Source: Deltaproteobacteria bacterium (GTDB lineage: Bacteria; Myxococcota; B64-G9). Taken from it: a stretch of DNA of 64,000 nucleotides. The stretch is taken from positions 24 to 64,023 of the forward strand of contig JAUXGL010000002.1 in the NCBI GenBank assembly GCA_030622135.1, read 5' to 3'. The notes beneath the pieces were generated by a model that ran no database searches, had not been told where the DNA came from, and saw only the letters and a list, made by a program, of their open reading frames with translations. Shown here piece by piece: positions 13,898 through 46,359 of this stretch. Within the stretch, counting starts at the first letter, position 1. Each line of letters starts with the position of its first letter. Made by a program: the position numbers and the translations under genes.

Positions 13898-14140
13898 ATG
13901 CAGGGTAAAACCGTGTCGGAGCTGATTGGCGACGTTTTGTCCAGTTATCTTGGACCGAACACCGCCAAGACCGCCGTGAAGACCTTTTCTAAAAAGGAGT
14001 TGGGCCTATCACCGGAAAAACTGACCGCCACGAATGTGCCTAAGCTCATGGACGGCATGCGACCCATGTTACGGACGCTTCTGGGTGAAGACGTGACCGA
14101 AGTCCTGGTTGCGATTATTCAGCGCGAGGTGGGGCAATGA
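13898..14140 (+). CDS. Conserved 80-aa soluble protein, copy 1 of duplicated module
   Basis: MQGKTVSELIGDVLSSYLGPNTAK… is 100% identical at the protein level to copy 2, with only synonymous DNA differences. It overlaps the downstream membrane gene (ATGA). Confidence 0.65.
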   Translation: MQGKTVSELIGDVLSSYLGPNTAKTAVKTFSKKELGLSPEKLTATNVPKLMDGMRPMLRTLLGEDVTEVLVAIIQREVGQ

Positions 14141-14955
14141 AACTGCGTCTGTTGCTGGTGTTTCCGGTTCTGCTGACAATTGGGTACTTGCTGCTGGAGC
14201 TTTTTTTCGGAAAGGACCTATGGTTTGCATCTTCTGTAAAATATTTCATCACTTTCGGGGATGCGCTGGCTTGTCTGGGGTTTACTGCGGCGGCCCTTAG
14301 ATTCAAAGCCGGCGAGCATCTGCGCCGGGCGTGGTTGTTCATGGCCCTGTGTATGTTCACGTTCGTTTGCCTCCGATTCGTCGATGTATTTACGTTTGAT
14401 TCTGTATTTGGCTTGAGCGAGGACGTAAAGAATGCAATCCGAGGCGGCGTCAGCGTTTTGGCCAACATCTTCTGGGTTGTTGGCTTGTGGAAGTTGGCCA
14501 GAGTCATGCATATGACCGGCCTGGGTTTTGGTGTCTCTAAATGGGACCAGCGTCTGGTGCTTGGCCTCGGGATCCTGTTGGGGGTTACCTTTGGCGGCTC
14601 GTCGGTTGTAACCGGTGTGATCGCTGTTATGGACGGCAATCTTTTTGCTTTGAACTGGTTGGCGGCCGGGCTGGCGGATGTCATGGTCCTTTGCTTGATC
14701 GCACCTTTGTTTTTGACTGCTCTGGCCATGCGGGGTGGTTTGTTGGTTTGGCCCTGGGGGTTGCTGGTCGCCTGTTTGCTCGGGTGGCTCTTTGTCGACG
14801 CCTTTCAATCATTGGGCCAGATAGTCGATCTCGACCCTCTAGTCCAAAGGTGTACCATGATCACCTCTCGGACTTGGGCCTGTGCGTTTGGTTTCTCGGC
14901 CGGCATGGCTCAACGAATGATTTTGGGTAGACGCTTCACCGATAAAATCAAATGA
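14137..14955 (+). CDS. Polytopic membrane protein (about 8 TM), copy 1 of duplicated module
   Basis: A 272-aa hydrophobic ORF, roughly 70-75% identical to the paralog at 15251..16069. Confidence 0.65.
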   Translation: MKLRLLLVFPVLLTIGYLLLELFFGKDLWFASSVKYFITFGDALACLGFTAAALRFKAGEHLRRAWLFMALCMFTFVCLRFVDVFTFDSVFGLSEDVKNAIRGGVSVLANIFWVVGLWKLARVMHMTGLGFGVSKWDQRLVLGLGILLGVTFGGSSVVTGVIAVMDGNLFALNWLAAGLADVMVLCLIAPLFLTALAMRGGLLVWPWGLLVACLLGWLFVDAFQSLGQIVDLDPLVQRCTMITSRTWACAFGFSAGMAQRMILGRRFTDKIK

Positions 14956-15011: not shown

Positions 15012-15254
15012 ATGCAAGGTAAAACCGTGTCGGAGCTGATTGGCGACGTTTTGTCCAGCTATCTTGGGCCGAACACCGCCAAGACCGCGGTGAAGACCTT
15101 TTCTAAAAAGGAGTTGGGCCTATCACCGGAAAAACTGACCGCCACGAATGTGCCTAAGCTCATGGACGGCATGCGACCCATGTTACGGACGCTCCTGGGT
15201 GAAGACGTGACCGAAGTCCTGGTTGCGATTATTCAGCGCGAGGTAGGACAATGA
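15012..15254 (+). CDS. Conserved 80-aa soluble protein, copy 2
   Basis: Its protein sequence is identical to copy 1. Confidence 0.65.
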   Translation: MQGKTVSELIGDVLSSYLGPNTAKTAVKTFSKKELGLSPEKLTATNVPKLMDGMRPMLRTLLGEDVTEVLVAIIQREVGQ

Positions 15255-16069
15255 AACTGTGTCTGTTGCTGGTGTTTTCCGTTCTGTTGACAATTGGGTA
15301 CTTGTTGATGGAGCTTTTTTTCGGAAAGGACCCGTGGTTTGCATTTTTTTCAGGATACTTCACCACTGTCGGTGATGCGCTGGCTTGTCTGGGGTATGCC
15401 GTGGCGGCCTTTAAATTCAAAGCCGGCGAGCATCTGCGCCGGGCGTGGCTTTTCTTGGCCCTGACTTTCTTCTTGTTCGTTTGCCTCCGATTCTTAGATC
15501 GATTTCTATTTGAATTGTTATTTGGCTTGACCGCGGGCGAAATCGATGTAGCCCTGGGTAGCTCCTGCGTCTTGGCCAACATCTTCTTGGCTATCGGCTT
15601 TTGGAAGTTGGCCAGAGTCATGCATATGACCGGCCTGGGCTTTGGTGTCTCTAAACGCAAACAGCGTCTGGTGCTCGCCGTCGGGATCCTGTTGGGGGTT
15701 ACCTTTGGCGGCTCGTCGGTTGTAACCGGTGTGATCGATGTTGTGTTCGGCGATTTTTATTCTTTGAACTGGGTTGCCTCCGGGCTGGCGGATGCCTTTT
15801 GCCTTTGTTTGATCGCACCTTTGTTTTTGACTGCTCTGGCCATGCGGGGTGGTTTGCTGGCTTGGCCCTGGGGACTGTTAACCGTAAGTGTGCTCGGTTG
15901 GCTCCTGGTCGATGCCTCTCAAGCATATGCTCTGGTAGTCGATCTCGACCCTATAACCCTGAGGTGTGTCAAAATCACGGCTCGGACCATGGCCTGTGCG
16001 TTTGGTTTCTCGGCCGGCATGGCTCAACGACTGGTTTTGGGTAAACGATTCACCGATAAAATCAAATGA
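15251..16069 (+). CDS. Polytopic membrane protein, copy 2
   Basis: A paralog of 14137..14955 with the same length, the same start-overlap architecture and the same C-terminal RFTDKIK. Confidence 0.65.
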   Translation: MKLCLLLVFSVLLTIGYLLMELFFGKDPWFAFFSGYFTTVGDALACLGYAVAAFKFKAGEHLRRAWLFLALTFFLFVCLRFLDRFLFELLFGLTAGEIDVALGSSCVLANIFLAIGFWKLARVMHMTGLGFGVSKRKQRLVLAVGILLGVTFGGSSVVTGVIDVVFGDFYSLNWVASGLADAFCLCLIAPLFLTALAMRGGLLAWPWGLLTVSVLGWLLVDASQAYALVVDLDPITLRCVKITARTMACAFGFSAGMAQRLVLGKRFTDKIK

Positions 16070-22771: not shown

Positions 22772-23695
22772 TTATGAGGGCTGGGCCGGTTCTTCTCCCG
22801 GTTCTCCCAGGAGATCCTTCAGGTTCTCGGCCACGGTCACCCCATTTTTCAAGGGACGGTAGATCACGTGGTTGGCGCCGTGGTGGATGGCCTCTATGGC
22901 TCCATCCAGGCCGCGCTCCCTGGCCACGGCTACGAAGAGAATGTCCGGCGTGACCAGCAGGGTGCTGCGCAGGAAGCAGGAAGAGGCGGAGTCGCGGCGG
23001 ATGAGATCCAGGTCGCAGATCAACGAGTCGGCGGTCTTCTTCCGGATCGCTTCTAGAACTTCCGTCACACTGGCCATTACCAGCGGCTGGTGACCCAGCA
23101 GCTTCACTCCGTCGACCAGGCATTCCAGGGAATTCCGGTTGGGATCGCATATGAGCACCGGATGCCGGGAGGTGTTCTCCCCCGGTATCCGGGTCGTGAT
23201 CACCCGTTTCTGGCGCAGCTCGATGACCTCGTTGACTTTCTGCTCTAGTTCAGACAGCTCGAAGGGCTTGAGGATGTAGCCGTCCACGCCGATGGCCATG
23301 GCCTCCTCGGCCGACTTCCGGGAGGCGTAAGCGGTGATCAAGATCACGCCCATGTTCTCGTCCACCGCCTTGGCCCGGCGGATCACGTCCAGTCCGGTGA
23401 TTCCGGGAAGGTTCTTGTCGGTGATGAGCAAGTCGAACGGCTCCTTCAAAAGCAGCGAGATGGCCTGCTCCCCGTCGGCCGCGTCGACCAGGTACAGGCC
23501 GGGCTTTTCGAGCACGTTGCGGATCACATCGCGCACGACCAACTCGTCGTCCACCACCAGAATCCGGGAGGATCTTTTATTCGCGGCCACGTCCTCGATT
23601 CCCCAAACAGCCCCCGCTTCGAAGTATGCGCCGATTGTAGCCAAGCCTCGATTTATGCGCAAGCTGTATCTCGACCCGTGGGTTATGGTATCCAT
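22772..23695 (-). CDS. Response regulator (REC domain) with second degenerate receiver-like domain
   Basis: A REC motif is present (ILVVDDELVVRDVI…DLLITDKNLPGITGLDVI…ILKPF). Confidence 0.7.
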   Translation of the reverse strand: MDTITHGSRYSLRINRGLATIGAYFEAGAVWGIEDVAANKRSSRILVVDDELVVRDVIRNVLEKPGLYLVDAADGEQAISLLLKEPFDLLITDKNLPGITGLDVIRRAKAVDENMGVILITAYASRKSAEEAMAIGVDGYILKPFELSELEQKVNEVIELRQKRVITTRIPGENTSRHPVLICDPNRNSLECLVDGVKLLGHQPLVMASVTEVLEAIRKKTADSLICDLDLIRRDSASSCFLRSTLLVTPDILFVAVARERGLDGAIEAIHHGANHVIYRPLKNGVTVAENLKDLLGEPGEEPAQPS

Positions 23696-23741
23696 ACGTC
23701 TTGCATCCCCTTCTTTATCTGGATATGCTCTCGTCTCGACG

Positions 23742-24809
23742 ATGACTGAATCATCGAGAACCGATGGCTATCTGGCCCTGGAGCAGTTGCTCCACGGCCT
23801 TTTGATCGCCCTGCGGCGCTGCCGGAAGAAGTTCATCGACTTGGATCGTGGCGAGATCCATGCCCTGTGCCTCTCGACCCTCTCGGTCCTGGGCGGCGGA
23901 GCACCGGCCGTCCTGCTACTGGCCACTCCGGAGGGCAATTTCCGCCTGGAGCTCTCCTCGGGCCCGATGCCGGGCGATTCCGAAAAGTTGGTGATGGACC
24001 TGTTACCCGACCAGCTAGAGCTGCTTGGCAAAAAACCGAATCGGCTGGGCAAGATCGAAGGCTACAATAGGATGTGCCAGAGCGCCTTCGGCAAGAAAGA
24101 CGTGTTCGGTCGGGCTCTGGTCTCCGGTGACGGCACCGGGACCGGTGTCGTCACCGGCATCCTGCTGGTCCTGCCGCCGGAAGGCCGGGCCCACTCTCCG
24201 GAAGAGCTCGAGGTGCTGCACCTGGTGGCCGCGCAGATCAACACTCTGCTCCAGACCGCCGACGAGTTTGCCGCCCTGGTCGATCTGGCCATGGTGGACG
24301 ATCAAACCGGCTTGTACAACTACCGCTACCTCAACAAGCGTCTGTCCGCGGAGATCTCCCGCGCCACCCGGCACGGGCACCCGCTGTCGCTGCTTTTCTG
24401 TGAGATCGACGACTACGAAATTTTCCGCAAGAACGTCGGTCGCCCGGCGGCGGATCTCCTGCTGACCCAGGTCGGCGATCTGCTCAAATCCCGCGCCGAT
24501 ATCCCCGGCGCCTCCTTCTGTTTCCGGGTCTCGGACATCCCCATCCGCTACGGCGGCGAGAATTTCGTCATCATTCTGCCCGAAACCTTCAAGGAGGGCG
24601 CCCAGACCAAAGCCGAGCGTCTGCGCCGCTACGTGGAGTCTTCGCCCATCGGCGGCGGCGAGAACCAGCCCCTGGGCCGGATCACCATCTCCATCGGTGT
24701 GGCCACCCACCCGGACGACGCCTCCGACACCGCATCTCTCCTCGCCGCCGCCGACCAGGCGCTGCTTGAAGCCAAGGAGCAAGGGAAGAACAAGGTGGAG
24801 TTGGCGTAG
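23742..24809 (+). CDS. GAF-like + GGDEF domain protein with variant signature GGENF
   Basis: The C-terminus has a diguanylate-cyclase fold (YNYRYLNKRL…RYGGENFVIILPE…). The ORF track extends to 23334, but that extension overlaps the divergent response-regulator gene, so I chose the Met at 23742. Confidence 0.7.
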   Translation: MTESSRTDGYLALEQLLHGLLIALRRCRKKFIDLDRGEIHALCLSTLSVLGGGAPAVLLLATPEGNFRLELSSGPMPGDSEKLVMDLLPDQLELLGKKPNRLGKIEGYNRMCQSAFGKKDVFGRALVSGDGTGTGVVTGILLVLPPEGRAHSPEELEVLHLVAAQINTLLQTADEFAALVDLAMVDDQTGLYNYRYLNKRLSAEISRATRHGHPLSLLFCEIDDYEIFRKNVGRPAADLLLTQVGDLLKSRADIPGASFCFRVSDIPIRYGGENFVIILPETFKEGAQTKAERLRRYVESSPIGGGENQPLGRITISIGVATHPDDASDTASLLAAADQALLEAKEQGKNKVELA

Positions 24810-24835: not shown

Positions 24836-26527
24836 TCAGCGCAGCAGCCGGGAAATGATGATGTGCGGAAAAGCCGAAACCGGACCCTGCTTGCGGATTC
24901 GGTCCAGCAGGAAGACGAGCTTCTGGGTGGTCATGCCGTCGTGGGGCAATAGGATCAACGTCCGGCTGTCTTCAAAACGCGCGTGGGCCTTTGAGAGAGC
25001 CTCCGACAGCCCGGCCAAATCCCGGGTTTTGAGACGGTCGGGCAACGTCGCCGCCAGGGAGTCGAGGTCTTCTGCGGAAACTCCAAACCCTCCGAAACTG
25101 ATCTCCATCCGGTCCTTTTCCACGATGAGGTTGGCCGTCACCCCGCCGGACGGCTTTAAATTTCCCTCGAAGTGGGCGATCTCGAAGGGGATCGCTCGGA
25201 AGAATGAAAAGTGTTTCGATAAGCATACGCCGTACAGGCGCAGCTCCCCGGTGCAGCGTTTTTCCACGGGCGGACGGACCACCAGGTGAAACCGGCGCCA
25301 GCCGGCCACTCCCGCCGCGCGCAAGAAGGTATATAACCGTTCGAAGCGCAGGCGCGAGTCGGCGGCCAGGTTGGGCGCTTCCTCCCTGGGCGTGTCGGTC
25401 CGCCGACCCAGGACGGGAACCTCGCCCTCGAGAACCAGCTTCTCCTCCAACCATGCGGATTTTTCAGATACCATTAGAAGTGGCCCCGGACCGGGCCCGC
25501 CGGTCGATTGGCTGACGGGCAACTCCAGGTCGGCGGGCAGGACCAGCACGCACCGCTCTCGATACTGACCGCGCCAGCCCAACTCGAAGCCGGTGCCCAT
25601 TCCCAAAATGGCCAGCAGTACCAGCAGCAACCCGATCGTTTTTTTCGCGGACGCGAAGCCGAAGCGCCCCACCCGCAGGAAAACCGCCGCCAGCACAAGA
25701 ATCGAGAGAAACGGAAGTAGGTGCTGAAGCGCCGTCGCTGCCACCACGCCGGCCTCCGCCCGGTCGTCGCCGGTCAGTCCCGGCGTATCAAAAGCCAAAT
25801 GGTGCAACCCGCAAGTCCGATGATAGGAAACCAGGGCCCAGCCCAGCATGAACAGACCGCCGGTGGCCGCCAGGATGGCGGGCAGGGCCGAGGAATTTGT
25901 TGTCACCCGGGGGAACAGGCGTGCCCAGAGCCACAGCACCGCACCGCCCCCCAGCAGAACCCACAGCCCCCGCACGGCGTAGCCGCCCACCTGGGTTTTC
26001 TCGGGCATGGCCGCATCCACGAAAGTCCACGCGGCAACGGCGATGAATGTCGCCCCGGCCACAACAAACACCCATCCGGCCTCCCTGACCGTTGCACGCT
26101 CACGGGGCATAAGCACCGAGAGCGTGCCCAGCCACAACGAGCCGGTGGCCAGCAGGCCCAGAAACAGATGCCGCTGGGCGAAGAAGGCCACGGCCAGGAA
26201 CAGATCGCAATCGGTTCCCGCCCCGGTTACCCGGGGCACCCGACCGATGTAGAGACAAGCCACGCCCAGGCCCAGGACGGCGGGAGCCAGGCAAAAGTAC
26301 AAAGCCAGATCGGGCCGGGCCGGGACCCGCCAGAGCACCAGGGCCAGCGACATTGCCCAGGCGGCCGCGATCGCCAGGTAGGGAACATCGATGGGTGAGC
26401 CCAGTTCCCGTAGATGGCCGCCCGAGTGCAGTCCGAACAACAACAGGGCCACCAAAAAAGCGAGAAACTGCCCCCCCAGCAGCCGGACAAACGGACTACC
26501 TTGCGAGGCGGGAGACTCCGGGGGCAT
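24836..26527 (-). CDS. Polytopic membrane protein with soluble C-terminal domain, function unknown
   Basis: About 9-10 predicted TM helices in the first 320 aa are followed by a soluble tail of about 240 aa. Confidence 0.55.
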   Translation of the reverse strand: MPPESPASQGSPFVRLLGGQFLAFLVALLLFGLHSGGHLRELGSPIDVPYLAIAAAWAMSLALVLWRVPARPDLALYFCLAPAVLGLGVACLYIGRVPRVTGAGTDCDLFLAVAFFAQRHLFLGLLATGSLWLGTLSVLMPRERATVREAGWVFVVAGATFIAVAAWTFVDAAMPEKTQVGGYAVRGLWVLLGGGAVLWLWARLFPRVTTNSSALPAILAATGGLFMLGWALVSYHRTCGLHHLAFDTPGLTGDDRAEAGVVAATALQHLLPFLSILVLAAVFLRVGRFGFASAKKTIGLLLVLLAILGMGTGFELGWRGQYRERCVLVLPADLELPVSQSTGGPGPGPLLMVSEKSAWLEEKLVLEGEVPVLGRRTDTPREEAPNLAADSRLRFERLYTFLRAAGVAGWRRFHLVVRPPVEKRCTGELRLYGVCLSKHFSFFRAIPFEIAHFEGNLKPSGGVTANLIVEKDRMEISFGGFGVSAEDLDSLAATLPDRLKTRDLAGLSEALSKAHARFEDSRTLILLPHDGMTTQKLVFLLDRIRKQGPVSAFPHIIISRLLR

Positions 26528-26541
26528 TCGTCAAGGCCGAA

Positions 26542-29500
26542 TCAGTATCCCTGGCCCTGGTTGGCCTTATTCCCGCGGAACTTGGGAAAGGAGCCCGAGA
26601 AGTCGCCAAGATATGCGTGGCCCTGGATGGCCCAGAGGTAACCGCCGTTGGACCCTCCCCATGTCTCCAGCAGGTAGACCACCCCGTTAGGCCCGATGAC
26701 CGGAGAAGAGACGATGGAGCCCGAGCTGCTCACCGAGACTCCGATGCCCCACTCCATCATCCCCGCCAGGCTGTAGCAGTACAGGTACTTGCCGCTGTGG
26801 AACAGGAAGGAGCCGTCGTGCCCCACGGTGATGCTGGAGTTGGTCTCGGGAGCCATCCAGGCATTGTCCAGGTCTCCGCCTTTGGAGATGTAGATGTATA
26901 TGTTGCCCACCCACGAGGTCCCGGTGGCATGGGAGGTCATATAGACGATGTCTCCGCCGCCGGCCTCGGGCACCGTGGTCGGAGAGCAACCTTCTACCAG
27001 GGTAGAGGTCACATTGTTCCCCTCGGCAACCGAGACCGGGAAGTCTGCAATCGGGTCTCCGGTTTTGCCATCGAGGCCGTGGAGCAGTCCGTCGTCGCAG
27101 CCGATGTAGACGGTGCCGTCCACGCCGATGGCCGGCGAGCTGTTGCAGGCAGCGTCGGTGGTAACCACCCACGCCGGCGGATCGCTGTCTTCAACGTCGA
27201 TGGCGACAATAAAGCCACCCAACGCCGACTCCATGCCGAAGACCACGTACTCCTCGCCGGCCGGCCCGATGTCACCCAGGGCCGGGGAGCTGTCCATTGC
27301 ATTGCTGTGCGGGTAGTTCCACTTCTCCGAGCCGTCCGGGTTGACCGCGTAGAAGCCGTCGCCGCGGGTGCCGAAGTAAATGGTTCCGTCGATGCCGACC
27401 GCCGGCGAAGAATGAATCTCGTAACCCGCTGCCGGCACTGTCCAGCCGGCCTCGGCCAGTCCGGTGGAAGCTACCAGGGCGAGAAGGCCGCTGGTACTCC
27501 CAACGTAGAGGGTCTGCTCGTCGTACGAGAGCGCAATCGACGTGGTCAGATCCAATCCAAACCTGGCGTATACCCGGGCGCCTGCCGAGTTGGTTTTTCG
27601 GAGGTATCCGTTATCGCCGACGGTGTAGACGTTTCCGCTCGTGTCGATGGCCGGTGTACTGGAACCGCCGTAAACGAACGATTTCCAGACTACGTCACCG
27701 TAGCCTTCCCATCCCGGTGTGCAGATGGTCCGCTTCCAGAAGTCTTGGGAGTTGTCATCGGTGTCGTTGTGCCAGACCCAGCGGCTGAGGCAGGGGGTGT
27801 AGGGTGGGTCGTAGGGGGGTGTGTTGTAGTTGGCTGCCGCGGCAGGCTGGCCTTCCCCGACGAACGTCCCGCCGCCGGAGAAGTCGCCGTACCCCAGCGC
27901 GTCGGTGACGATCACCTCGGCATACACTACTTTCAGATTGTCGTGATCGTTCTGCAGCAGATTGCCGCTCCCATGGGTCATGTCCCGCTGGGCGGCCGTT
28001 TCCGCATCGGCGATGGAGGTGGCGATGACGAAGTGCCCGTTGGAGGGCAGCGTGTACCCGTCCAGCGGAATGGTCATGTAGATCTGCCCGTTGGCTCCGT
28101 TGACCCCCTCCACCGAGAAGTTATCCAGGCTGGCGCCGCCGGGGCCGTACAGCTCGATGAACTCGCGCTCGCCGTCGATGCCTTCGTCGTCGTAGAGGAT
28201 TTCATTGATCAGAATCGTCATGGGCGTGGTGGTGATGCAGTTGCCGCGGTAGCACATCTCGGTCCCCACCTGGCAATCCATCGGGGTGCCCCACTCCAGG
28301 CAGGGATCCCCGTCGAAATACCCGCACTTGTGCCAGGCGTTCTCTCCCATGATGCACTCGACCTCGTTGATGCCCGGACACTCATCGGTGCAGATCACCA
28401 CGCAGTCTCCGTCCTGGCACTCCTCGTTGTAGGCACAGTAGGTGATGTCCGACAAGTCCAGGCAGTCGTCTTCATCGTACTCCCCGCAAACCCGGAAACC
28501 GTTGTCGTGGTCGTCGCAGATCGGCAACCCCACTTGGGCCTGGGTACATTCGTCGATGCAATCCACCAGGCACTCACCGATCGAGCAAGTTGTCCCCGCG
28601 GGACAGGTCACGTGTCCGCCCCACTCCAGGCAGGGGTCGGCATCGTAGTCGCCGCAGATGTCGTACCCGTCGCCCGAGCACTGGTGGGAGTCCACCACGG
28701 TGCAATCGTCGTCGCAGACGATTTCACACTGGGCTGTGTCCTCATTGCAGGCCTCCCCGTCACCGCAAGGGGTCACGCCGGACCACTCCAGGCAGGAGTC
28801 CGGATCGAACTGGCCACACTCGTGCCAGCCGTTCTCGAAGCACTCCCGCTCTTCCAGGGTGTCGCATTCGTTGCTGCAGCTAATCACGCACTCGGCGGTG
28901 ACCGGGTCGCAGATATGGCCCACGCCGCAATCGGTGACGGTCGACCATTCCAGGCAATCGTCGGCATCGTAATTGCCGCACTCGTGCCAGCCGCTGAGGT
29001 CACCGATGCACTCCTTCACACCGGATTCATCGCATTCGTTTTGGCACTCCTCTGTAGTACACACGCCGTTGTCGCATCTCTCGCCATTGGCGACGTCGCA
29101 TTCCTCGATGTCGCTCCACTCCCGGCAGGGGTCGGCATCGTAGTTGCCGCAGACCTTGAAGTGGGTGTTGTCTGTGCAGACCCGCTCGTTCTCGTCGCAA
29201 TCGTCCTGGCAGTCCTCCACGCACTCTCCGCCGTCGCACTTGAACCCGGTTTCGCAGGCCACGTGGCCGCCCCACTCCAGGCAGGGATCGCTGTCAAAGT
29301 CGCCGCAGGTGTCGTAGCCGTCGGTCGAGCAGCGCCGGTCTCCCTCTGTGGGGCACTCGTCCGAGCAGGAGATCTCGCACCGGCCGGTTTGCTCGTTGCA
29401 GGTTTCGAAGGAAGCGCAGTCGGTGATACCCGACCAGTCCAGGCAGGGGTCGGCGTCGTAGTAACCGCACACCCGGTAGCCGTTGCCTTCGCAGATGCGC

Positions 29501-30084
29501 TGCTCCTTTGCGCAGTCATCCTGGCACTCGTCCGAGCAAGTTGCCGTCTGGGTGTCGCAGGTCTGGCCGGCCGGGCAGTCGGTTTGCTGGCCCCAGTCCA
29601 GGCAGTCGTCCTGATTGTAGTCCCCGCAGATCTCGAAGCCCTCCTTGAGGGGGTCGGGGATGCAACGGCGGTCGCCGGCCTGCTTGCATTCGTCGGTGCA
29701 GTCGGTCACGCAGTTTCCGTTTTCGCAAACCTGGCCGGTGTCGCAGGACTGGGCGGTCATCCATTCCTTGCAGGTGTCGTTGTTCGGATCGCCACACACC
29801 TGGAACATATCGGCGGAACCCGAGAAGCAGCGCCGCTCCCCCTCGGTGCACTCGTCCGAGCAGGGCACGCAGATCCCCTTGGAGCAAAACTGGCCGGTCG
29901 CACAAGCGTTGTCGCAGCTTCCGCAATGGGACCGGTTTATGCTCATGTCCACGCATTCGTTTACGCATTTCTTCTGCCCCGGGGGACACTCGGATGCGGA
30001 GTCGCCACCGCAACCGGTAACGAGGGTAATGGCCAACAGGGGTATCAAACAACACAGCATCCACAGTTTCCACAGCTTCTTCAT
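26542..30084 (-). CDS. Large secreted lipoprotein: Myxococcus-type Cys-rich N-terminal module, about 11 x 52-aa six-Cys repeats, lamin-tail-like domain (LTD), PQQ-like beta-propeller
   Basis: A signal peptide with lipobox LVTGC is present. The repeats are C-x-DEC…R-C…CG-YD-D-CL-W…C. The LTD-like segment is ILINEILYD…EFIELYG. The C-terminus has repeated beta-propeller blades (…DGTIYFGT…, …DGTVYIGC…). Confidence 0.75.
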   Translation of the reverse strand: MKKLWKLWMLCCLIPLLAITLVTGCGGDSASECPPGQKKCVNECVDMSINRSHCGSCDNACATGQFCSKGICVPCSDECTEGERRCFSGSADMFQVCGDPNNDTCKEWMTAQSCDTGQVCENGNCVTDCTDECKQAGDRRCIPDPLKEGFEICGDYNQDDCLDWGQQTDCPAGQTCDTQTATCSDECQDDCAKEQRICEGNGYRVCGYYDADPCLDWSGITDCASFETCNEQTGRCEISCSDECPTEGDRRCSTDGYDTCGDFDSDPCLEWGGHVACETGFKCDGGECVEDCQDDCDENERVCTDNTHFKVCGNYDADPCREWSDIEECDVANGERCDNGVCTTEECQNECDESGVKECIGDLSGWHECGNYDADDCLEWSTVTDCGVGHICDPVTAECVISCSNECDTLEERECFENGWHECGQFDPDSCLEWSGVTPCGDGEACNEDTAQCEIVCDDDCTVVDSHQCSGDGYDICGDYDADPCLEWGGHVTCPAGTTCSIGECLVDCIDECTQAQVGLPICDDHDNGFRVCGEYDEDDCLDLSDITYCAYNEECQDGDCVVICTDECPGINEVECIMGENAWHKCGYFDGDPCLEWGTPMDCQVGTEMCYRGNCITTTPMTILINEILYDDEGIDGEREFIELYGPGGASLDNFSVEGVNGANGQIYMTIPLDGYTLPSNGHFVIATSIADAETAAQRDMTHGSGNLLQNDHDNLKVVYAEVIVTDALGYGDFSGGGTFVGEGQPAAAANYNTPPYDPPYTPCLSRWVWHNDTDDNSQDFWKRTICTPGWEGYGDVVWKSFVYGGSSTPAIDTSGNVYTVGDNGYLRKTNSAGARVYARFGLDLTTSIALSYDEQTLYVGSTSGLLALVASTGLAEAGWTVPAAGYEIHSSPAVGIDGTIYFGTRGDGFYAVNPDGSEKWNYPHSNAMDSSPALGDIGPAGEEYVVFGMESALGGFIVAIDVEDSDPPAWVVTTDAACNSSPAIGVDGTVYIGCDDGLLHGLDGKTGDPIADFPVSVAEGNNVTSTLVEGCSPTTVPEAGGGDIVYMTSHATGTSWVGNIYIYISKGGDLDNAWMAPETNSSITVGHDGSFLFHSGKYLYCYSLAGMMEWGIGVSVSSSGSIVSSPVIGPNGVVYLLETWGGSNGGYLWAIQGHAYLGDFSGSFPKFRGNKANQGQGY

Positions 30085-30304
30085 TTCTAATCCTCCCTAG
30101 ATATCCTCAATTATGACGAAGTGACGAAGTTAGGACACACTCCCCTCAGACTGAAATTTATAACACCTGGATTCAAAAGAGGAAAGAAAAAAGCAGGGGG
30201 TCATAAAACTCTTGCGCATCCAATGGGATACAAGCTTGAACCCCCCCCCCGCCCGTGGTAACGTCCGCCATGCCACGAGGATAAACAAAACTAACGGAGG
30301 CAAA

Positions 30305-32587
30305 ATGGACGCTCCCCTCCCCGCATCTTCCAAGTTGCTGCCGGAGAACGCGTATCGCCGGCTGAAGTCCGGCGAGGAGTACCGGCCCATCGTCTCGGCT
30401 TCGGACCTCCGGGCGGAGGTCACCCCCTGGTCCATCGGCCTGGGCGTGATCATGGTGATCGTATTCACCGGAGCCAGCGCGTACATTGCGCTGCGGGCCG
30501 GAAGCGGCATCGAGGCGTCCATCCCCGTCGCCATCCTGGCCATCTTCTTCGGCTCGATGAGGAAATTCAAGAGCACCATCCTGGAAAACGTAATGGTCCA
30601 GAGCGTGGGCCAAGCGGCCGGAGTGGTGGCGGCGGGCGCGACCTTCGTCATCCCCGCGCTCTACATCAACGAGCTCGAGGCCTCCTGGTGGCAGATCTTT
30701 CTCGCCTGCGGCGTGGGAGGATGCCTGGGGACGGCGCTGATCATCCCGCTGCGCAAGTACTTCGTCAAAGACCTGCACGGCGAGTTGCCCTTTCCCGAGG
30801 CCACCGCCATCAACGAGGTGCTGGTCGCCGGCGAGAGCAACGCCGGGGGGGCCGGCAAGATCCTTATTTTGGCCTTCTGCCTGGGGGCCTCCTTCGATTT
30901 CCTGGTCGAGGCCATGCATCTGTGGAACGCCGAGTTAACCACCGACGTGCTTCCCTGGGGGATCGGCGAGGGCCTGGCCGGCCTGCGCATCGAGATCCAG
31001 ATCGCCGGCATCGCCGCCCTGTTCGGCCTGGGCATGATCATCGGCGTCAAGTACTCCTCGATCATTGCCGCCGGATCGGTGCTGGCCATGCTGGTCATGG
31101 TGCCGCTGGTCTACTATTTCGGCAAGGACTTGGGCAGCTTCGCCTTCTCCGGCAAAGCGTTCGACATCGGCCAGATGGACTCCTCGGCCATTTTCGGCAA
31201 CTTCATCAAACCCATCGGCATCGGCGCCATCGCCATATCCGGCCTGATCGGAATCATCCGGATGGGCAAGATCGTAGTCAATTCGGTAACCCTGGGTTTC
31301 AAGGGCTTGTCTCGGCAGGAGGGCGGGGAAGCCGCGCAAGAGCGTACCCAGTTGGATCTGGCCCCCAAGAACGTGTTGCTGATCCAGCTGGCCGCGTCCC
31401 TGGCCATGGGTGTGCTCTTCTTCATCGTGGCCAGCACGACCTGCGTGGCCGGCGAGTCCTACGGCGCGGGCGACAGCCTGCTGTTCGCCGTGGTGGGCAT
31501 GGGTGTCGTTTTCCTGCTCTCCTTCCTGTTCACGCCGGTGGCCGCCCAGGCAATCGCCATCGTGGGCGTCAACCCGGTCTCGGGCATGACCCTGATCACC
31601 GTGGTGCTGGCCATCGGCTCTTTGATCCTGGTCGGCCTGAAGGGCGAAGCCGGAATGATAATCGCCCTGATCGTGGGCGCGGCCGTCTGCACGGCGCTGT
31701 CTACATCCGGGGCCTTGGTCTCGGATTTCAAGATCGGCTACTGGATAGGCTCGACCCCCCGCAACCAGCAGCGTTGGAAGTTCCTGGGCGTATTGGTGGC
31801 GGCCCTGGTGGTCGCCTTCGTCATTCCCTTGATGGACCAGGCCTACAATTTCATCGATCCCATAACCAAGCTACCCAACGACAAGGTGCTTCCGGCGCCG
31901 CAGGCTAACATGATCGGGGCAATGGCCGATGGTTTGATGGCCGACCCGGCCGGCCAGCCCTGGTTGCTCTATGCCCTGGGAGGTGTTTGCGCGATCATGC
32001 TGCTGATGGCGGGCGTGCCCATGCTGGCCTTTGCCATGGGCATGTATCTGCCCATCTTCATCAACATGGCCATACTGGCCGGAGCCGTCTGTGCATGGGT
32101 CATTGCCAAGACCGGCCGCACCAAGGCGATCAAGAAGTCCCGGGGGGAGCAGGTCACACTGATTGCGGCCGGCCTGATGGCCGGCGCCGCCATCGTGGGC
32201 CTGTTGACCGCCGTCCTGCGGCTCACCAGTGTCGGGGCACCCATCCAGTACATCTCGGTTGGTACCGATCTCGAAGTGGAGGCGGTTGTCGATGGCAAAG
32301 CGGCTTTTCGTGACGGCAAGTTCGTCGAATGGTGCGACGAGCTGGATCTGGGTCCCGAACAGGCCTGCAACGAGCGTCTGGCCAAGCGTACGTTTGTGAG
32401 CGACGACAACGGGCAGATCGTCCTGGATGAAAACGGCGAAAAAACCTATCGCCACCCCTGGTACGAAAAGGGCCTGGGTAGGGGGATCGGCCTGCTCATG
32501 CTTCTGGCCCTGTGTTTCGGCTGCTATTACCTGGCCAGAAAGGGCGCGCGCTGGCGAATGGCCAGTGAAAAAGAAGAGGGGACGTGA
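30305..32587 (+). CDS. OPT-family oligopeptide transporter
   Basis: About 16 TM helices and OPT-family N-terminal motifs are present. A GGAGG RBS precedes the ATG at 30305; the ORF track begins at 30212. Confidence 0.8.
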   Translation: MDAPLPASSKLLPENAYRRLKSGEEYRPIVSASDLRAEVTPWSIGLGVIMVIVFTGASAYIALRAGSGIEASIPVAILAIFFGSMRKFKSTILENVMVQSVGQAAGVVAAGATFVIPALYINELEASWWQIFLACGVGGCLGTALIIPLRKYFVKDLHGELPFPEATAINEVLVAGESNAGGAGKILILAFCLGASFDFLVEAMHLWNAELTTDVLPWGIGEGLAGLRIEIQIAGIAALFGLGMIIGVKYSSIIAAGSVLAMLVMVPLVYYFGKDLGSFAFSGKAFDIGQMDSSAIFGNFIKPIGIGAIAISGLIGIIRMGKIVVNSVTLGFKGLSRQEGGEAAQERTQLDLAPKNVLLIQLAASLAMGVLFFIVASTTCVAGESYGAGDSLLFAVVGMGVVFLLSFLFTPVAAQAIAIVGVNPVSGMTLITVVLAIGSLILVGLKGEAGMIIALIVGAAVCTALSTSGALVSDFKIGYWIGSTPRNQQRWKFLGVLVAALVVAFVIPLMDQAYNFIDPITKLPNDKVLPAPQANMIGAMADGLMADPAGQPWLLYALGGVCAIMLLMAGVPMLAFAMGMYLPIFINMAILAGAVCAWVIAKTGRTKAIKKSRGEQVTLIAAGLMAGAAIVGLLTAVLRLTSVGAPIQYISVGTDLEVEAVVDGKAAFRDGKFVEWCDELDLGPEQACNERLAKRTFVSDDNGQIVLDENGEKTYRHPWYEKGLGRGIGLLMLLALCFGCYYLARKGARWRMASEKEEGT

Positions 32588-39861: not shown

Positions 39862-41631
39862 TCAGATCTGTAGTTCGCGGACGGTTTCTTCCCGCGGCAC
39901 CCCGTCCTCGTCCCAGCCGCGCAGGCGGTAGTAGGGGTCCAGCATCTCGTCCAGCTTGACCAGGCGATTGCGGGAGGCGCCTTCCTCCAGTTTCTCGTTG
40001 AGAAACCGCGGAGGCAGGCTGTCGTCCTTTCTGGTGAGGCCGGCCTTGGTGTTGAAGAGTCTCTCCAGGGTATAGATGCGCTTGCCGATGGTGATGAGTT
40101 CCTCTTCGGTGAAGTCGAGCCCGGTGACCAGGTTGAGCATCTTTTTGAAGGTGTCGACGCCCATGGCGAACTGTAAAAAACGGCACAGGCCGAGCGAGTC
40201 CACGCAGGCGGAGATGTCCTGGAGCAGGACGACGATCTCCGCCTTGCCCGCCGTGGAGAACCGGTCCATGAAGCAGGGTTGCCCCAGGATCTCGGGGCCG
40301 ATGACATAAGCGCGCATGTGGCAACCTCCCCGGTTGGAGGTCGCGTAGGAAAGCGCCTGCCCCTGGACGCCGCGGGGATCGTAGGCGGGGAGCTCCAGGC
40401 CCTTGACCTGCATGGACAGCTCCGGTCGCTGGTACTTCTCGGAAAGCCGCTTGGAGCCCAGGGCCAGCTCGCCGCCGAAGCCGCGCCGGTAGGCGATGTC
40501 CTCTACCAGCCGCCGCACCCGCCCGGCGTCTCCCCAGGAGATCTTTTCGGGCAGCAATCCCAGCTCGGACAGCTCCATGGCGCATCCGATGGTGTTGCCG
40601 CAGGAGATGGTGTCCAGCCCCAGCTCGTTGCAGCGGTAGTTGGCTTCGGTGATGGACACCAGGTCGCTTACCAAAAGCTGAGCGCCGAAGGCCCAGACCG
40701 ACTCGTATTCCGGCCCCTCGCCCGCTTTATTGGGGGTCCGGGTCGTTCGCCCGCAGGCGATGGGACACCGGTAGCACGCGCTTTTGGCCTTCAGGATGGT
40801 CTCGGCGATCTTCTCGCCGCTGGTCCCCTCGGCGTCGTTGAAAACGCCTCGCCGGAAGTTCTCGGTGGGGTACATCCCGTGGGCGTTGATCACGTTGACC
40901 AGCACCGACGTCCCCAGGACTTGCAGCGACTTCCCGGTCACCGGGTTCTTGTCGACCAGCCGGTCGAGGAAGGCACTGAGCTCTCCCAGCCCTTCCGGGT
41001 CGGCGACTACGACATTCTGGGTTCCGTTGACCACCACCGCCTTGAGATTTTTCGAACCCATGACCGCGCCCAGGCCGCCCCGGCCGGCGGCCCGGTCCTT
41101 GTCGTTCATCACCGCCGCGAACAACACCTGGTTCTCCCCCGCGGGACCGATGCTGGCCACGGACGCCTTGGAAGAGGTCTCGTCCAGAAGCGCCCGCTTG
41201 GTCGCCGGGGTGTCCTTTCCCCAGAGATGGGCCGCGTCTTTCACTTCGATCCCGTCGTCGGTGACATGTAAATACCTGGGCTGGTCCGCCTTGCCGGTGA
41301 TGATGAGTCCGTCCAGGCCGGTTCGTTTCAGGGCCGCCCCGAAGGTGCCCCCCGAGCTGGAATCGCAGATGGTCGTGGTCAAGGGGGAGCGGGAGACGAT
41401 CTGGTAGCGGCCGCCGGTCAGCACCGCCCCGGTCAAGGGACCGGTGAGGAAGATCAAGGCGTTTTCTGGGGAAAGCGGATCGGTCTTCTCGTCGCAGAGC
41501 TCGGTGTACAGCTTTACCCCCAGGCCTCTTCCGCCCAGATAGCGTCTCCTGAGATCGTCATCGATCTCCAGATCCTCCTGCCGGCCCGTCGAAAGGTCGA
41601 TCTTTCTTATCTTTCCCATCCAGCCGTGCAT
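39862..41631 (-). CDS. Tungsten-type aldehyde:ferredoxin oxidoreductase (AOR family)
   Basis: AOR N- and C-terminal domain motifs are present (GKIRKIDLSTG…, DxxGxC Cys ligands CYRCPIACGR). The start was chosen at MHGWMGKI because an AAGAGG RBS precedes it; the ORF track extends to 41799. Confidence 0.85.
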   Translation of the reverse strand: MHGWMGKIRKIDLSTGRQEDLEIDDDLRRRYLGGRGLGVKLYTELCDEKTDPLSPENALIFLTGPLTGAVLTGGRYQIVSRSPLTTTICDSSSGGTFGAALKRTGLDGLIITGKADQPRYLHVTDDGIEVKDAAHLWGKDTPATKRALLDETSSKASVASIGPAGENQVLFAAVMNDKDRAAGRGGLGAVMGSKNLKAVVVNGTQNVVVADPEGLGELSAFLDRLVDKNPVTGKSLQVLGTSVLVNVINAHGMYPTENFRRGVFNDAEGTSGEKIAETILKAKSACYRCPIACGRTTRTPNKAGEGPEYESVWAFGAQLLVSDLVSITEANYRCNELGLDTISCGNTIGCAMELSELGLLPEKISWGDAGRVRRLVEDIAYRRGFGGELALGSKRLSEKYQRPELSMQVKGLELPAYDPRGVQGQALSYATSNRGGCHMRAYVIGPEILGQPCFMDRFSTAGKAEIVVLLQDISACVDSLGLCRFLQFAMGVDTFKKMLNLVTGLDFTEEELITIGKRIYTLERLFNTKAGLTRKDDSLPPRFLNEKLEEGASRNRLVKLDEMLDPYYRLRGWDEDGVPREETVRELQI

Positions 41632-41641
41632 AAAGCACCTC

Positions 41642-42481
41642 TTAATCATAGAACCGGTTGTAGGTCTCCAGGTGCTCGCAGGTGCGGCACCTCTTCTTGT
41701 AGTAGGTGTAGAGACCCTTGGGTAGCTTGTCGAGCTTGGCGTGCCGCGACGGACAATTGTGGCAGGGGATTTCCGGGAGAAGCCACGCCGACGGCGCAAA
41801 CTTATGCAGCGTGTAGCCCTCCAGGATGGCCACGCCCGCGCTGGTTCCCAGCCGGTCGGCTCCGGCCTGGATCATGCGCCAGGCATCCTTGAAGTTCACC
41901 ACGCCGCCGGATGCCTTGACGCCGATGTCCGGCCCGACCGTCCGGCGCATAAGCCTTACGTGATCCTCGAAAGCTCCGAAAGCCCCGAAGCCGGTCGAGG
42001 TCTTGACGAACCTGGCTCCGGCCTCCACTGCAAGCTCGCATCCCCTGACGATCTCCTCGTCGGTCAGATAGCAGGTCTCGAGGATTACCTTGACCGGGTG
42101 GGGTTGGCTGGCCGCAACCACCGCCCGGATGTCGTCTTGGACCCGATCGTACTGCTTGTCCTTTAGCGCGCCGACATGGATCACCATGTCGATCTCTCGC
42201 GCCCCCGCGGCCACCGCTTGCCGGGCCTCCTGCGCCTTTATCCGGCCGGGCGTGCTTCCGAGCGGAAATCCGACCACCGAGCAAACCAGCACATCGCTTC
42301 CCTGCAACAACTCGCTCGACAGCGGCACGTAGATCGGGTTGACGCAGACGCAGTAGAAGCAGAATGCCTTGGCCTCGTCGCAGAGGCTTTTTATCTTCTT
42401 TTCGCCCGAGTGCGATTTCAGCTCGGTATGGTCGATCATTCGGGCCAGCGATTCTCTGGTCAGTTGCATGCCTTGCTCCAA
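41642..42481 (-). CDS. deoC: Deoxyribose-phosphate aldolase (DeoC) with C-terminal Cys-rich (CxxC…CxxC) extension
   Basis: The DeoC Schiff-base region (…FVKTSTGF…) is present, followed by a tail of about 55 aa containing CHNCPSRH…CRTCEH. Confidence 0.8.
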   Translation of the reverse strand: MEQGMQLTRESLARMIDHTELKSHSGEKKIKSLCDEAKAFCFYCVCVNPIYVPLSSELLQGSDVLVCSVVGFPLGSTPGRIKAQEARQAVAAGAREIDMVIHVGALKDKQYDRVQDDIRAVVAASQPHPVKVILETCYLTDEEIVRGCELAVEAGARFVKTSTGFGAFGAFEDHVRLMRRTVGPDIGVKASGGVVNFKDAWRMIQAGADRLGTSAGVAILEGYTLHKFAPSAWLLPEIPCHNCPSRHAKLDKLPKGLYTYYKKRCRTCEHLETYNRFYD

Positions 42482-44664: not shown

Positions 44665-46359
44665 TTATTGGCCGAGGTGGGTTGGTGGCTTTGCCAGAAC
44701 CACCTGATTCCTACCGTTTTCCTTGCCTTCATAGAGAGCGTCATCTGCTTGTTTGATACATTCATCGACACCAATGGCTTCATCGTATGCACTGACACCA
44801 AAGGTCATATTGACTGCTAATTCGAGCTTTTCATGGTGAAATGTTTTATCTGCTATTTCACGTCTCATTTTTTCAGCCAATATTCCTCCACCGTCAAGCT
44901 CAGTCTCTGGAAGTAGAAAAAGAAACTCCTCACCCCCCCAGCGGCAGACTAGATCCTGCTTCCTCATCGTTTCAAGCATCAATTTAGCGATAGAAACAAG
45001 TACAAAATCGCCGGTTTTGTGTCCGTATTCATCATTGAAATTCTTGAATTTGTCTATATCACATAATATAAAGACAAAAGGTCTCTTATTCCTTTCGAAG
45101 CGTATCTTTTCCTGCTCAATACTCTCTAACATATCCCGACGGTTTGACAATTTTGTAAGCGGGTCGGTCCTCGAGAGTAGGTCCAGTTTTTTATTCATGC
45201 CAATTTTCACACGATACAGATAGAACAGGAAAATTACAATAGACAGAGTAACGAAAAGAAAGATAATCAACATCCTTCTTCTTGATTGTTCAATTATGTT
45301 GTCCTTTTTCAGCAGTTCAATCTCTTTTTCTTTCTTGTCGGATTCGTATTTTGCTTGCATCTCTGCAATCTTTTTACTGCTTCGTTCGGTAAAAATACTA
45401 TCCTTTACTTCTGAATGCTGTTTGTAAAATTCAAGTGCCTTTTTATTGTTACCCAATTCCGAATGAATCTCGGAGAAGTTATTGTAGATTTCTTGAGTTA
45501 TGTCTTTTGCTTCGATTTCTTTAGCCAATTTCAAACCCCGTTCCAGGTATGAAATTGCTTTATCATGCATCTTTAGTTCTCTATAGACGGATCCGATATT
45601 GGTCATTGAGGTGGCAACATCGAGTTTTTCCCCGATTTCTTCTGTTATTTTCAATGCTCTCAGGAAATACTCCAGAGTCATAACCGGATTGCCTAAATGG
45701 GAGTTGGCAATCCCAATATTGGTCAAAGTTTCAGATATACCTTTTTTATACCCGATCTCTTCTTTTATTTTCAATGATTTATTGTAATATTTCAAGGCTT
45801 TATTGTGTTTTTCCTGTTCCATGTAAACAAGTCCAATATTGTTCAAATAAGTCGCCAGTCCTTTTTTGTCTTCGATTTCTCTTGCAATTTTGATAGATCT
45901 TGTAAAGTATTCTATAGCTTTGTCGTGATTTCTCAATCTCCAGTAAATAAGTCCAATATTGTTCAAAGTTCTGCTAATCCCATTCTTATTATCAATTTCT
46001 TCAAATATTCTCAATGATTCAATAACATGTCCCAAAGCCTTGTCATAATCACATTTGTAATAATAGCCTATTCCGATATATCTTAGAGCCGTGGCTTCGC
46101 CTTCAATGTCTTTTAGTTTCTGCGCTAATTTCAAAGCCGCGCCGGCATGTTTTATGGCGTTTTCAAACGATGTTCCAAGATTAGCCATTGAAAGGTCATT
46201 TAAGACTTGAACCTTTTCTGTGCCGTGAACCGTTGGGAGCTTGCTCTCCAGTCGCTTGATTTCTTCATCAATTTCAGCCGCAAAAAGACACAACCCAAAA
46301 AAAGTTATGATGAGAACAATACCAAGGTGTAAATATTTATTAATATGTAGAGTTTTCAT
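44665..46359 (-). CDS. TPR-repeat membrane-anchored GGDEF diguanylate cyclase (AT-rich gene)
   Basis: It has a signal or TM sequence, about 8 TPR repeats, a TM helix and a GGDEF domain with the canonical RWGGEEF motif. The gene is markedly lower in GC than its surroundings. Confidence 0.85.
   Translation of the reverse strand: MKTLHINKYLHLGIVLIITFFGLCLFAAEIDEEIKRLESKLPTVHGTEKVQVLNDLSMANLGTSFENAIKHAGAALKLAQKLKDIEGEATALRYIGIGYYYKCDYDKALGHVIESLRIFEEIDNKNGISRTLNNIGLIYWRLRNHDKAIEYFTRSIKIAREIEDKKGLATYLNNIGLVYMEQEKHNKALKYYNKSLKIKEEIGYKKGISETLTNIGIANSHLGNPVMTLEYFLRALKITEEIGEKLDVATSMTNIGSVYRELKMHDKAISYLERGLKLAKEIEAKDITQEIYNNFSEIHSELGNNKKALEFYKQHSEVKDSIFTERSSKKIAEMQAKYESDKKEKEIELLKKDNIIEQSRRRMLIIFLFVTLSIVIFLFYLYRVKIGMNKKLDLLSRTDPLTKLSNRRDMLESIEQEKIRFERNKRPFVFILCDIDKFKNFNDEYGHKTGDFVLVSIAKLMLETMRKQDLVCRWGGEEFLFLLPETELDGGGILAEKMRREIADKTFHHEKLELAVNMTFGVSAYDEAIGVDECIKQADDALYEGKENGRNQVVLAKPPTHLGQ

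Follow-up and report, generated by a model that had tools for sequence, protein, structure and literature searches.

Laminin-type EGF modules, which hold eight cysteines in about 60 residues, and the calcium-binding EGF (cbEGF) arrays of fibrillin are both rod-forming modules that join head to tail. In the myxobacterium Myxococcus xanthus, the cysteine-rich tandem repeats of TraA (TIGR04201, with three invariant and two less conserved cysteines) have been proposed to form a rigid stalk that presents a PA14 domain (PMC3325183). Here, we describe a gene for an 1180-residue putative lipoprotein of an uncultured member of the Myxococcota, labeled Deltaproteobacteria bacterium, in a 64,000-nt stretch of contig JAUXGL010000002.1 (assembly GCA_030622135.1) which we refer to as the window. 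Between a predicted lipid anchor and a C-terminal head made of a lamin-tail domain (LTD) and a beta-propeller, this protein carries ten tandem copies of an eight-cysteine unit that is widespread and genuinely unannotated by curated families. We favor, with moderate confidence, the view that the array is a stalk.

The gene and its parts lie in the window as follows, with the supporting evidence in brackets:

26542..30084, minus strand: whole lipoprotein gene, 1180 aa, stop codon at 26542-26544 (open reading frame list, third-position GC content, orthologues)
30091..30097, minus strand: Shine-Dalgarno-like GGGAGGA, 6 nt before the ATG (read from the sequence)
30010..30084, minus strand: signal peptide and lipobox, aa 1-25, with MKK, hydrophobic core and LVTG-C25 (hydropathy, orthologues)
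29863..30009, minus strand: Stig1-like eight-cysteine module, aa 26-74 (Pfam PF04885, NCBIfam NF041328)
28225..29862, minus strand: array of ten eight-cysteine units of 52-58 aa each, aa 75-620 (unit alignment, unit profile)
27700..28224, minus strand: LTD, an Ig-like beta-sandwich, aa 621-795 (PF00932, structure model, orthologues)
26545..27699, minus strand: eight-bladed PQQ_2-type beta-propeller, aa 796-1180 (PF13360, Foldseek)

Ten eight-cysteine units form a regular array

Both a unit alignment and a hidden Markov model (HMM) of the unit resolve ten copies in the lipoprotein, which start at residues 75, 129, 187, 240, 292, 347, 403, 457, 509 and 565, the array ending at residue 620. Their consensus is C-x-D-E-C-x3-G-x3-C-x6-9-C-G-x-[FY]-D-x-D-x-C-L-E-W-x5-C-x2-G-x2-C-x2-G-x-C. 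An earlier sequence-only reading of the window had described about 11 copies of a six-cysteine repeat of roughly 52 residues. Our counts revise this in part: eleven is the number typical of the orthologues, there are eight cysteines rather than six, and the units are 52 to 58 residues long.

Within the protein, the ten units share 40% pairwise identity and a fixed cysteine spacing, a regularity far beyond chance. An HMM built from these ten units found 6 to 16 copies per protein in the 120 best homologues (1321 units in total), with a period of 51 to 55 aa; across 121 proteins, 1106 of 1134 periods contained eight cysteines. A larger set comprises 1754 distinct full-length units taken from 237 proteins, and in it every one of the eight cysteines is conserved to at least 99.7%. 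Further conserved positions are D3, E4, G9, G24, [DN]25, [FY]26, D27, D29, L32, [ED]33, W34, G43 and G49, among which [DN]25 reaches 63%, D27 80%, D29 91%, [ED]33 91% and W34 81% across the 1754 units.

The order of units also appears to have been kept. Units R3 and R4 share 81-87% identity with the corresponding units of P0002 and P0003, the closest orthologues, compared with 40% within the protein, so the units look positionally orthologous, with their number and order conserved. Sixteen of the 18 other orthologues in our alignment (A2) have 11 copies and the remaining two have 12 and 14; the unit that occupies second place in the orthologues is missing from the lipoprotein under study. Positional orthology together with this near-constant copy number suggests that the length of the rod is constrained. 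Tandem Repeats Finder detected no DNA-level tandem repeat across the array, which is therefore old and not an assembly artefact.

A lipid anchor and a Stig1-like module precede the array

The 1180-codon open reading frame (ORF) starts with ATG and occupies exactly the positions given by the sequence-only reading, on the minus strand, as seen from the ORF list and translation. A slightly longer ORF runs antisense to it (26353..30090, plus strand). Since its GC content at third codon positions (GC3) is 0.56, against 0.83 for the minus-strand gene (0.77-0.86 for the surrounding genes), it is a shadow of the lipoprotein gene. The Joint Genome Institute (JGI) calls the same gene from an internal Met (P0001, 1088 aa; metagenome contig Ga0451374_58549, L052:2720-5986) under the product name BamB, a start that cuts off the signal peptide, the lipobox and the Stig1-like module. 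The longer N-terminus is present in all full-length orthologues (19 in alignment A2, identity 42-70%), with Cys25 invariant among them; the 1180-aa reading is therefore correct, and the JGI start and the BamB name are apparently mistakes of annotation.

The N-terminus reads MKK-LWKLWMLCCLIPLLAITL-VTG-C25, and residues 7-25 form its only hydrophobic segment by hydropathy. Judged by pattern, the protein qualifies as a substrate of signal peptidase II (SPase II), with a positive n-region, a hydrophobic h-region and a lipobox of the form [LVI][ASTVI][GAS]C. For the adjoining module, the N-terminal 79 residues scanned alone match Stig1 (PF04885) at 31.2 bits (E 3.1e-7), above the Pfam gathering threshold (GA) of 24.1; in the scan of the full-length protein, the model was not reported at E≤1. 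NCBIfam NF041328 ("MXAN_6577-like") matches weakly (41 bits, E 1.3e-10, cut-off 100), and this match runs on into the first repeat unit. Thus the signal peptide and lipobox, the Myxococcus-type cysteine-rich N-terminal module and the overall domain order proposed from sequence (signal, cysteine module, repeats, LTD, propeller) all hold, the N-terminal module by PF04885 above GA and more weakly by NF041328.

The unit is unannotated, widespread and remotely linked to Stig1

We asked the curated collections for the repeat as full protein, di-repeats and single unit, and no Pfam-A (2025) or NCBIfam (2026) model matched it at E≤10. No family matched the array in any of the 19 orthologues either. 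EGF, laminin-EGF, cbEGF, TNFR, Dickkopf, CBM14 and other named cysteine-rich domains gave neither a Pfam match nor a significant structural one, and sequence-profile searches of the PDB with tri-repeat and single-unit alignments returned noise only. A 2026 preprint describes a cysteine-rich repeat, "CysRRep" (Cx6-9Cx5-7Cx8-11Cx7-8CC), which we rejected as the same repeat by spacing alone. Our literature searches on Stig1 in bacteria, on MXAN_6577 and on cysteine-rich surface proteins of DPANN archaea found nothing relevant.

The sequence-only reading had considered the repeat family possibly undescribed and had named a match to an existing family as the result that would speak against this; at E≤10, Pfam and NCBIfam returned no such match. 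It had also proposed an HMM search, and the repeat proved widespread: a tri-repeat profile run against 1.84 billion cluster representatives hit 2595 of them at E≤1e-3, of which 1333 reached E≤1e-10 and 482 reached E≤1e-30.

The unit is probably not an isolated invention, and here the claim of novelty needs qualification. The Stig1 model itself does not match any of the ten units at E≤10, whether scanned as single units, di-repeats or the full protein. When the unit profile was aligned by hhalign with a profile of the orthologues' Stig1-like module, the score was 27.6 (probability 85.8%) over 41 columns, with seven of the eight cysteines matched. Controls scored 10.1 ± 2.3 for 100 column shuffles (maximum 16.5) and 11.0 for a reversed profile. 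Because the score lies far above these shuffled controls, we treat the unit as a putative relative of the Stig1-like module that has diverged and expanded in tandem, remotely linked to it and missed by existing models.

One array is found beneath many heads

In the 235 repeat proteins compared, the array is located N-terminally, with a median of eight and up to 16 copies. An LTD follows it in 113 of the 235 and precedes it in one only, and the order Stig1-array-LTD-propeller is common to 22. Alternative C-terminal domains after the array are right-handed beta-helix, PKD, PPC, FGE-sulfatase and CarboxypepD_reg. At least 153 of 211 N-complete members carry a lipobox-like signal under a strict pattern (several of the listed misses look lipobox-like by eye), and none has Lys at position +2. 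From the lipid cysteine to the start of the first unit, the median distance is 49 aa. Since one and the same array carries such varied C-terminal domains, which would not be expected of a domain with a single activity, the module is best read as a generic anchor-proximal spacer reused under different heads.

To see where the unit occurs, genomes were scanned with two specific peptide patterns, which yielded 51 loci, nearly all in metagenome-assembled genomes (MAGs); these numbers are no census. Most loci are from Myxococcota, namely "uncultured Myxococcales", Bradymonadia, Nannocystaceae, Kofleriaceae and MAGs labeled Deltaproteobacteria, and some MAGs have several repeat loci (e.g., KLAP118, MAG_44 and BF4_123). 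Five loci are in DPANN-type archaeal genomes, four of them marked as MAGs (L033, L036, L041, L048 and L050), assigned to Woesearchaeota, Iainarchaeum, Pacearchaeota, Nanoarchaeia and one unclassified archaeon. Four of these five contigs have a GC content of about 39-40%, compared with about 60% in the window. On L033, the unit-bearing genes lie at 370-2958 and 3670-5424, both on the plus strand. A Woesearchaeota protein has about ten units, some near-identical, in addition to repeats that resemble the LDL-receptor-A type by eye; its units share about 50% identity with the best bacterial ones. This distribution suggests that the eight-cysteine module has been shared or exchanged between bacteria and archaea.

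Predicted structures of unit and head

An AlphaFold2 model of three units (residues 187-346, 57-sequence alignment), of the kind the sequence-only reading had called for, gave a confident all-beta fold, with a mean predicted local distance difference test score (pLDDT) of 94.9 and a predicted template modeling score (pTM) of 0.63. Each modeled unit consists solely of two beta-hairpins, on which Cys3/Cys4 and Cys7/Cys8 are located, and the acidic D-x-D-x-C-L-E-W loop connects the two hairpins. If all cysteines are oxidized, there would be four disulfides per unit and about 44 in total. We also looked for disulfide partners through co-loss of cysteines in the 1754 units; no signal emerged, and co-loss is uninformative here because all eight cysteines are essentially invariant. 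In calcium loops of the DxDxDG type, the first, third and fifth loop positions supply acidic ligands. By general analogy with cbEGF rods, the D/N-x-D-x-D motif of the unit suggests one Ca2+ per unit.

Foldseek found no PDB match to the tri-repeat model at E≤1e-3. The top non-significant matches were EGF/TNFR-type arrays (E≥0.34, TM≤0.24) and one chitin-binding type-2 domain, with template modeling (TM) scores on the query of at most 0.24. The latter structure, 2mfk, reached a Foldseek probability of 0.82 and a TM of 0.50 on the target. In BFVD, only weak matches to baculovirus VP91 and Chit-2c appeared (E 0.014-0.09).

The two parts of the head agree with what had been proposed from sequence. 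PF00932 scores 20.5-22.4 bits (E 1.7e-4 to 6.5e-4) on the LTD of the lipoprotein itself, below its GA of 34.3; the model matches 11 of the 19 orthologues at E≤0.01 (best E 3e-6), and the region is all beta-strand in the full-length model except for a low-confidence loop at residues 735-764. The propeller is the clearer case, since PF13360 (PQQ_2) matches at 40.6-48.2 bits, above its GA of 27.6, and does so in 19 of 19 orthologues. It is modeled at pLDDT 80-90, and its Foldseek neighbors, by TM on the target, are the designed eight-blade Cake8 (0.87), Bacillus YxaL (0.68-0.73) and BamB (0.66-0.77), compared with 0.39-0.51 for the PQQ dehydrogenases, which are 509-684 aa long. As modeled, the head is closer to scaffolding propellers than to quinoprotein dehydrogenases and would be non-enzymatic.

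A proposed stalk that displays a binding head, and its alternatives

We consider it fairly probable that the lipoprotein is a lipid-anchored envelope protein in which a rigid, anchor-proximal stalk displays an LTD-propeller binding head. SPase II cleavage would leave an acylated Cys25 that tethers the protein; the Stig1-like cap and the ten eight-cysteine modules would then form a stiff, protease-resistant rod, in which the conserved D/N-x-D-x-D loop of each module may bind Ca2+. This rod would keep the C-terminal LTD and eight-bladed propeller off the membrane, where the head, an Ig-like LTD plus a non-enzymatic propeller of BamB/YxaL size, might bind a protein or glycan partner. We favor this reading because of the order of anchor, array and head, the interchangeable heads, the invariance of the cysteines, the constrained copy number and the predicted non-enzymatic nature of the propeller, with the stalk proposed for the TraA repeats (PMC3325183) as a precedent; the rigidity of the rod and the binding function of the head are what we infer from these features. 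The rule by which Lys at +2 sorts lipoproteins derives from M. xanthus, and the protein is probably sorted to the outer membrane.

Some observations pull in the other direction. The full-length model is of moderate quality (pLDDT 73, pTM 0.45). Exposure at the cell surface may apply, the single pointer to it being the lack of Lys at +2. In addition, the conserved aromatics [FY]26 and W34 of the unit, together with the weak resemblance to chitin-binding type-2 domains, point to the possibility that the units are binding modules themselves.

The last observation leads to the alternative that survives best, although we regard it as unlikely: the array itself would be the functional part, a multivalent chitin- or peptidoglycan-type adhesin with each unit lectin-like. 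Chitin-binding type-2 domains (2mfk, VP91, Chit-2c) are indeed the least bad structural matches, aromatics are kept in every unit ([FY]26, and W34 at 81%), and members of the family are found in both Myxococcota and DPANN archaea, the latter living attached to other cells. Yet these matches are all non-significant (E>0.01, TM on the query ≤0.27), Pfam CBM_14 does not match at E≤10, and W34 may be no more than a mini-core such as a small disulfide domain would have. Moreover, spacer-less arrays of 8 to 16 copies between an anchor and a head are typical of stalks.

Less probable still is a structural role in the extracellular matrix or in an S-layer-like coat, in which the rod would polymerize or cross-link rather than display a head. 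Cysteine-rich repeat proteins are typical of extracellular matrices (PMC3325183), and there are many paralogues per MAG. However, a lipid anchor combined with just one C-terminal head speaks for a tethered monomer, and the Pfam and NCBIfam scans found no self-association motif or S-layer domain. Accordingly, among the roles floated in the sequence-only reading, that of an S-layer-associated component found no pointer, whereas an adhesin or binding scaffold is compatible with the anatomy; its broader description as a secreted, modular, lipid-anchored protein, rich in what would be disulfides, is supported.

An envelope-tethered PQQ-dependent quinoprotein dehydrogenase would account for the PQQ_2 matches, for the presence of PQQ dehydrogenases among the Foldseek matches and for one orthologue that touches PF01011 at E 8.7e-4. 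Such an enzyme would be expected to have PF01011 repeats, residues that bind PQQ and a metal, and a propeller of about 550-700 aa. We think this reading very improbable, as the propeller of about 385 aa has the size of BamB and YxaL and superposes poorly on the longer dehydrogenases, and the Pfam scans gave no PF01011 match in the lipoprotein. That the protein could serve this organism as BamB, the assembly factor for outer-membrane proteins after which JGI names it, is hardly credible: it is a lipoprotein whose eight-bladed PQQ_2 propeller superposes on BamB, but identity to BamB structures is only 15-18%, the BamB equivalogs score far under their cut-offs (TIGR03300, 32.4 vs 285.2 bits; NF008351, 17.3 vs 423 bits), BamB has neither a 600-residue cysteine-rich array nor an LTD, and paralogues fuse the array to beta-helix, PKD and PPC heads.

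Returning to the anchored stalk, a bolder version can be formulated, which we offer as tentative and rather doubtful. The 54-residue unit might be a distinct, ancient and as yet unnamed domain family, a prokaryotic counterpart of laminin and cbEGF rods with one Ca2+ site per module, that serves Myxococcota as a universal stalk for exchangeable surface heads and has been exchanged with DPANN archaea.

Genomic neighborhood and other features of the window

As the sequence-only reading had noted, the gene is flanked by a divergent OPT transporter gene and by a gene for a polytopic membrane protein:

30212..32587, plus strand: OPT oligopeptide transporter gene, divergent, 127-bp intergenic region (Pfam PF03169, E 1e-84)
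24836..26527, minus strand: 563-aa membrane protein, about nine transmembrane segments plus a C-terminal domain that is soluble (translation, hydropathy)

The OPT gene is divergent and upstream in 12 related loci (identity 64-71%). Flanking housekeeping genes are syntenic there too, so OPT synteny is weak evidence of a functional link and may be mere gene-order conservation. The gene for the 563-aa membrane protein is co-directional and starts 14 nt past the lipoprotein stop, and in nine orthologous loci the gene directly downstream encodes a weak homologue (31-36% identity); the membrane-protein gene is a probable operon partner of the lipoprotein gene. The membrane protein has no Pfam or NCBIfam family, with only a faint ExbD/TolR-like match in its C-terminal part (E 0.11), and its 15 close homologues are all without names. 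A scan for promoters and terminators at the locus was uninformative.

Elsewhere in the window, we noted several unrelated features. Two tandem paralogous genes (14137-14955 and 15251-16069, both plus strand) encode 272-aa hydrophobic proteins that are 71% identical without gaps and belong to no Pfam family; the stretch around them has a lower GC content (about 0.53-0.56) than the remainder of the window. A gene for a TPR and GGDEF diguanylate cyclase (44665-46359, minus strand) has a GC3 of 0.39 compared with about 0.8 in its neighbors, in a 2-kb stretch of 46% GC, and was probably acquired horizontally in recent times. A tungsten-type aldehyde:ferredoxin oxidoreductase (39862-41799, minus strand; AFOR_N E 1e-76, AFOR_C E 8e-142) hints at an anaerobic myxobacterial lineage. 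Lastly, the longest-ORF readings of a response-regulator gene (22772-23695, minus strand) and a GGDEF gene (23334-24809, plus strand) share about 360 nt, read from opposite strands. Because of this overlap and the shorter JGI products (290 aa and 384 aa, respectively), the true starts of both genes are probably internal.

Significance and comparison with known systems

In hundreds to thousands of large proteins of uncultured Myxococcota, annotation leaves 300 to 800 residues blank. Repeat proteins of this sort are named after whichever head domain is recognized, which in the present case produced the misleading label BamB. The unit deserves a family model, which would correct such annotations and mark out a group of proteins, probably displayed at the surface, in predatory or social bacteria and in episymbiotic archaea. 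As a compact, presumably disulfide-braced rod module, it could also act as a spacer in protein engineering. The conceptual gain is moderate, because cysteine-rich stalks that carry a binding head are already familiar, both from TraA and from eukaryotic EGF arrays.

Like TraA, the lipoprotein is a myxobacterial envelope protein with a tandem cysteine-rich array between a membrane anchor and a distal putative binding domain. The polarity is opposite, however, since TraA has a C-terminal sorting tag (MYXO-CTERM) and our protein an N-terminal lipid anchor; the TraA repeat has its three plus two cysteines as opposed to eight invariant ones here; and the head is PA14 in the one and LTD plus propeller in the other. 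TIGR04201 was not among the NCBIfam matches at E≤10, the presence of this model in that release being unverified. With EGF arrays, the protein shares small cysteine-rich modules in tandem, and the acidic motifs beside the first cysteine recall the Ca2+ sites of cbEGF. In contrast to true members, the units gave no match to the Pfam models EGF, Laminin_EGF or cbEGF at E≤10, which makes this an analogy rather than membership.

The head has the propeller fold and size of BamB and YxaL and the same Pfam family, PQQ_2, and BamB is also a lipoprotein; identity to the head is 15-22%, and neither of the two has a cysteine-rich array or an LTD. The N-terminal module is a member of the Stig1/MXAN_6577-like family (PF04885, NF041328), and the unit profile aligns with this module at seven of eight cysteines. 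From Stig1 itself, the unit differs by an extra leading cysteine, a Trp in place of one Stig1 cysteine, the acidic D-x-D loop and its strict tandem organization.

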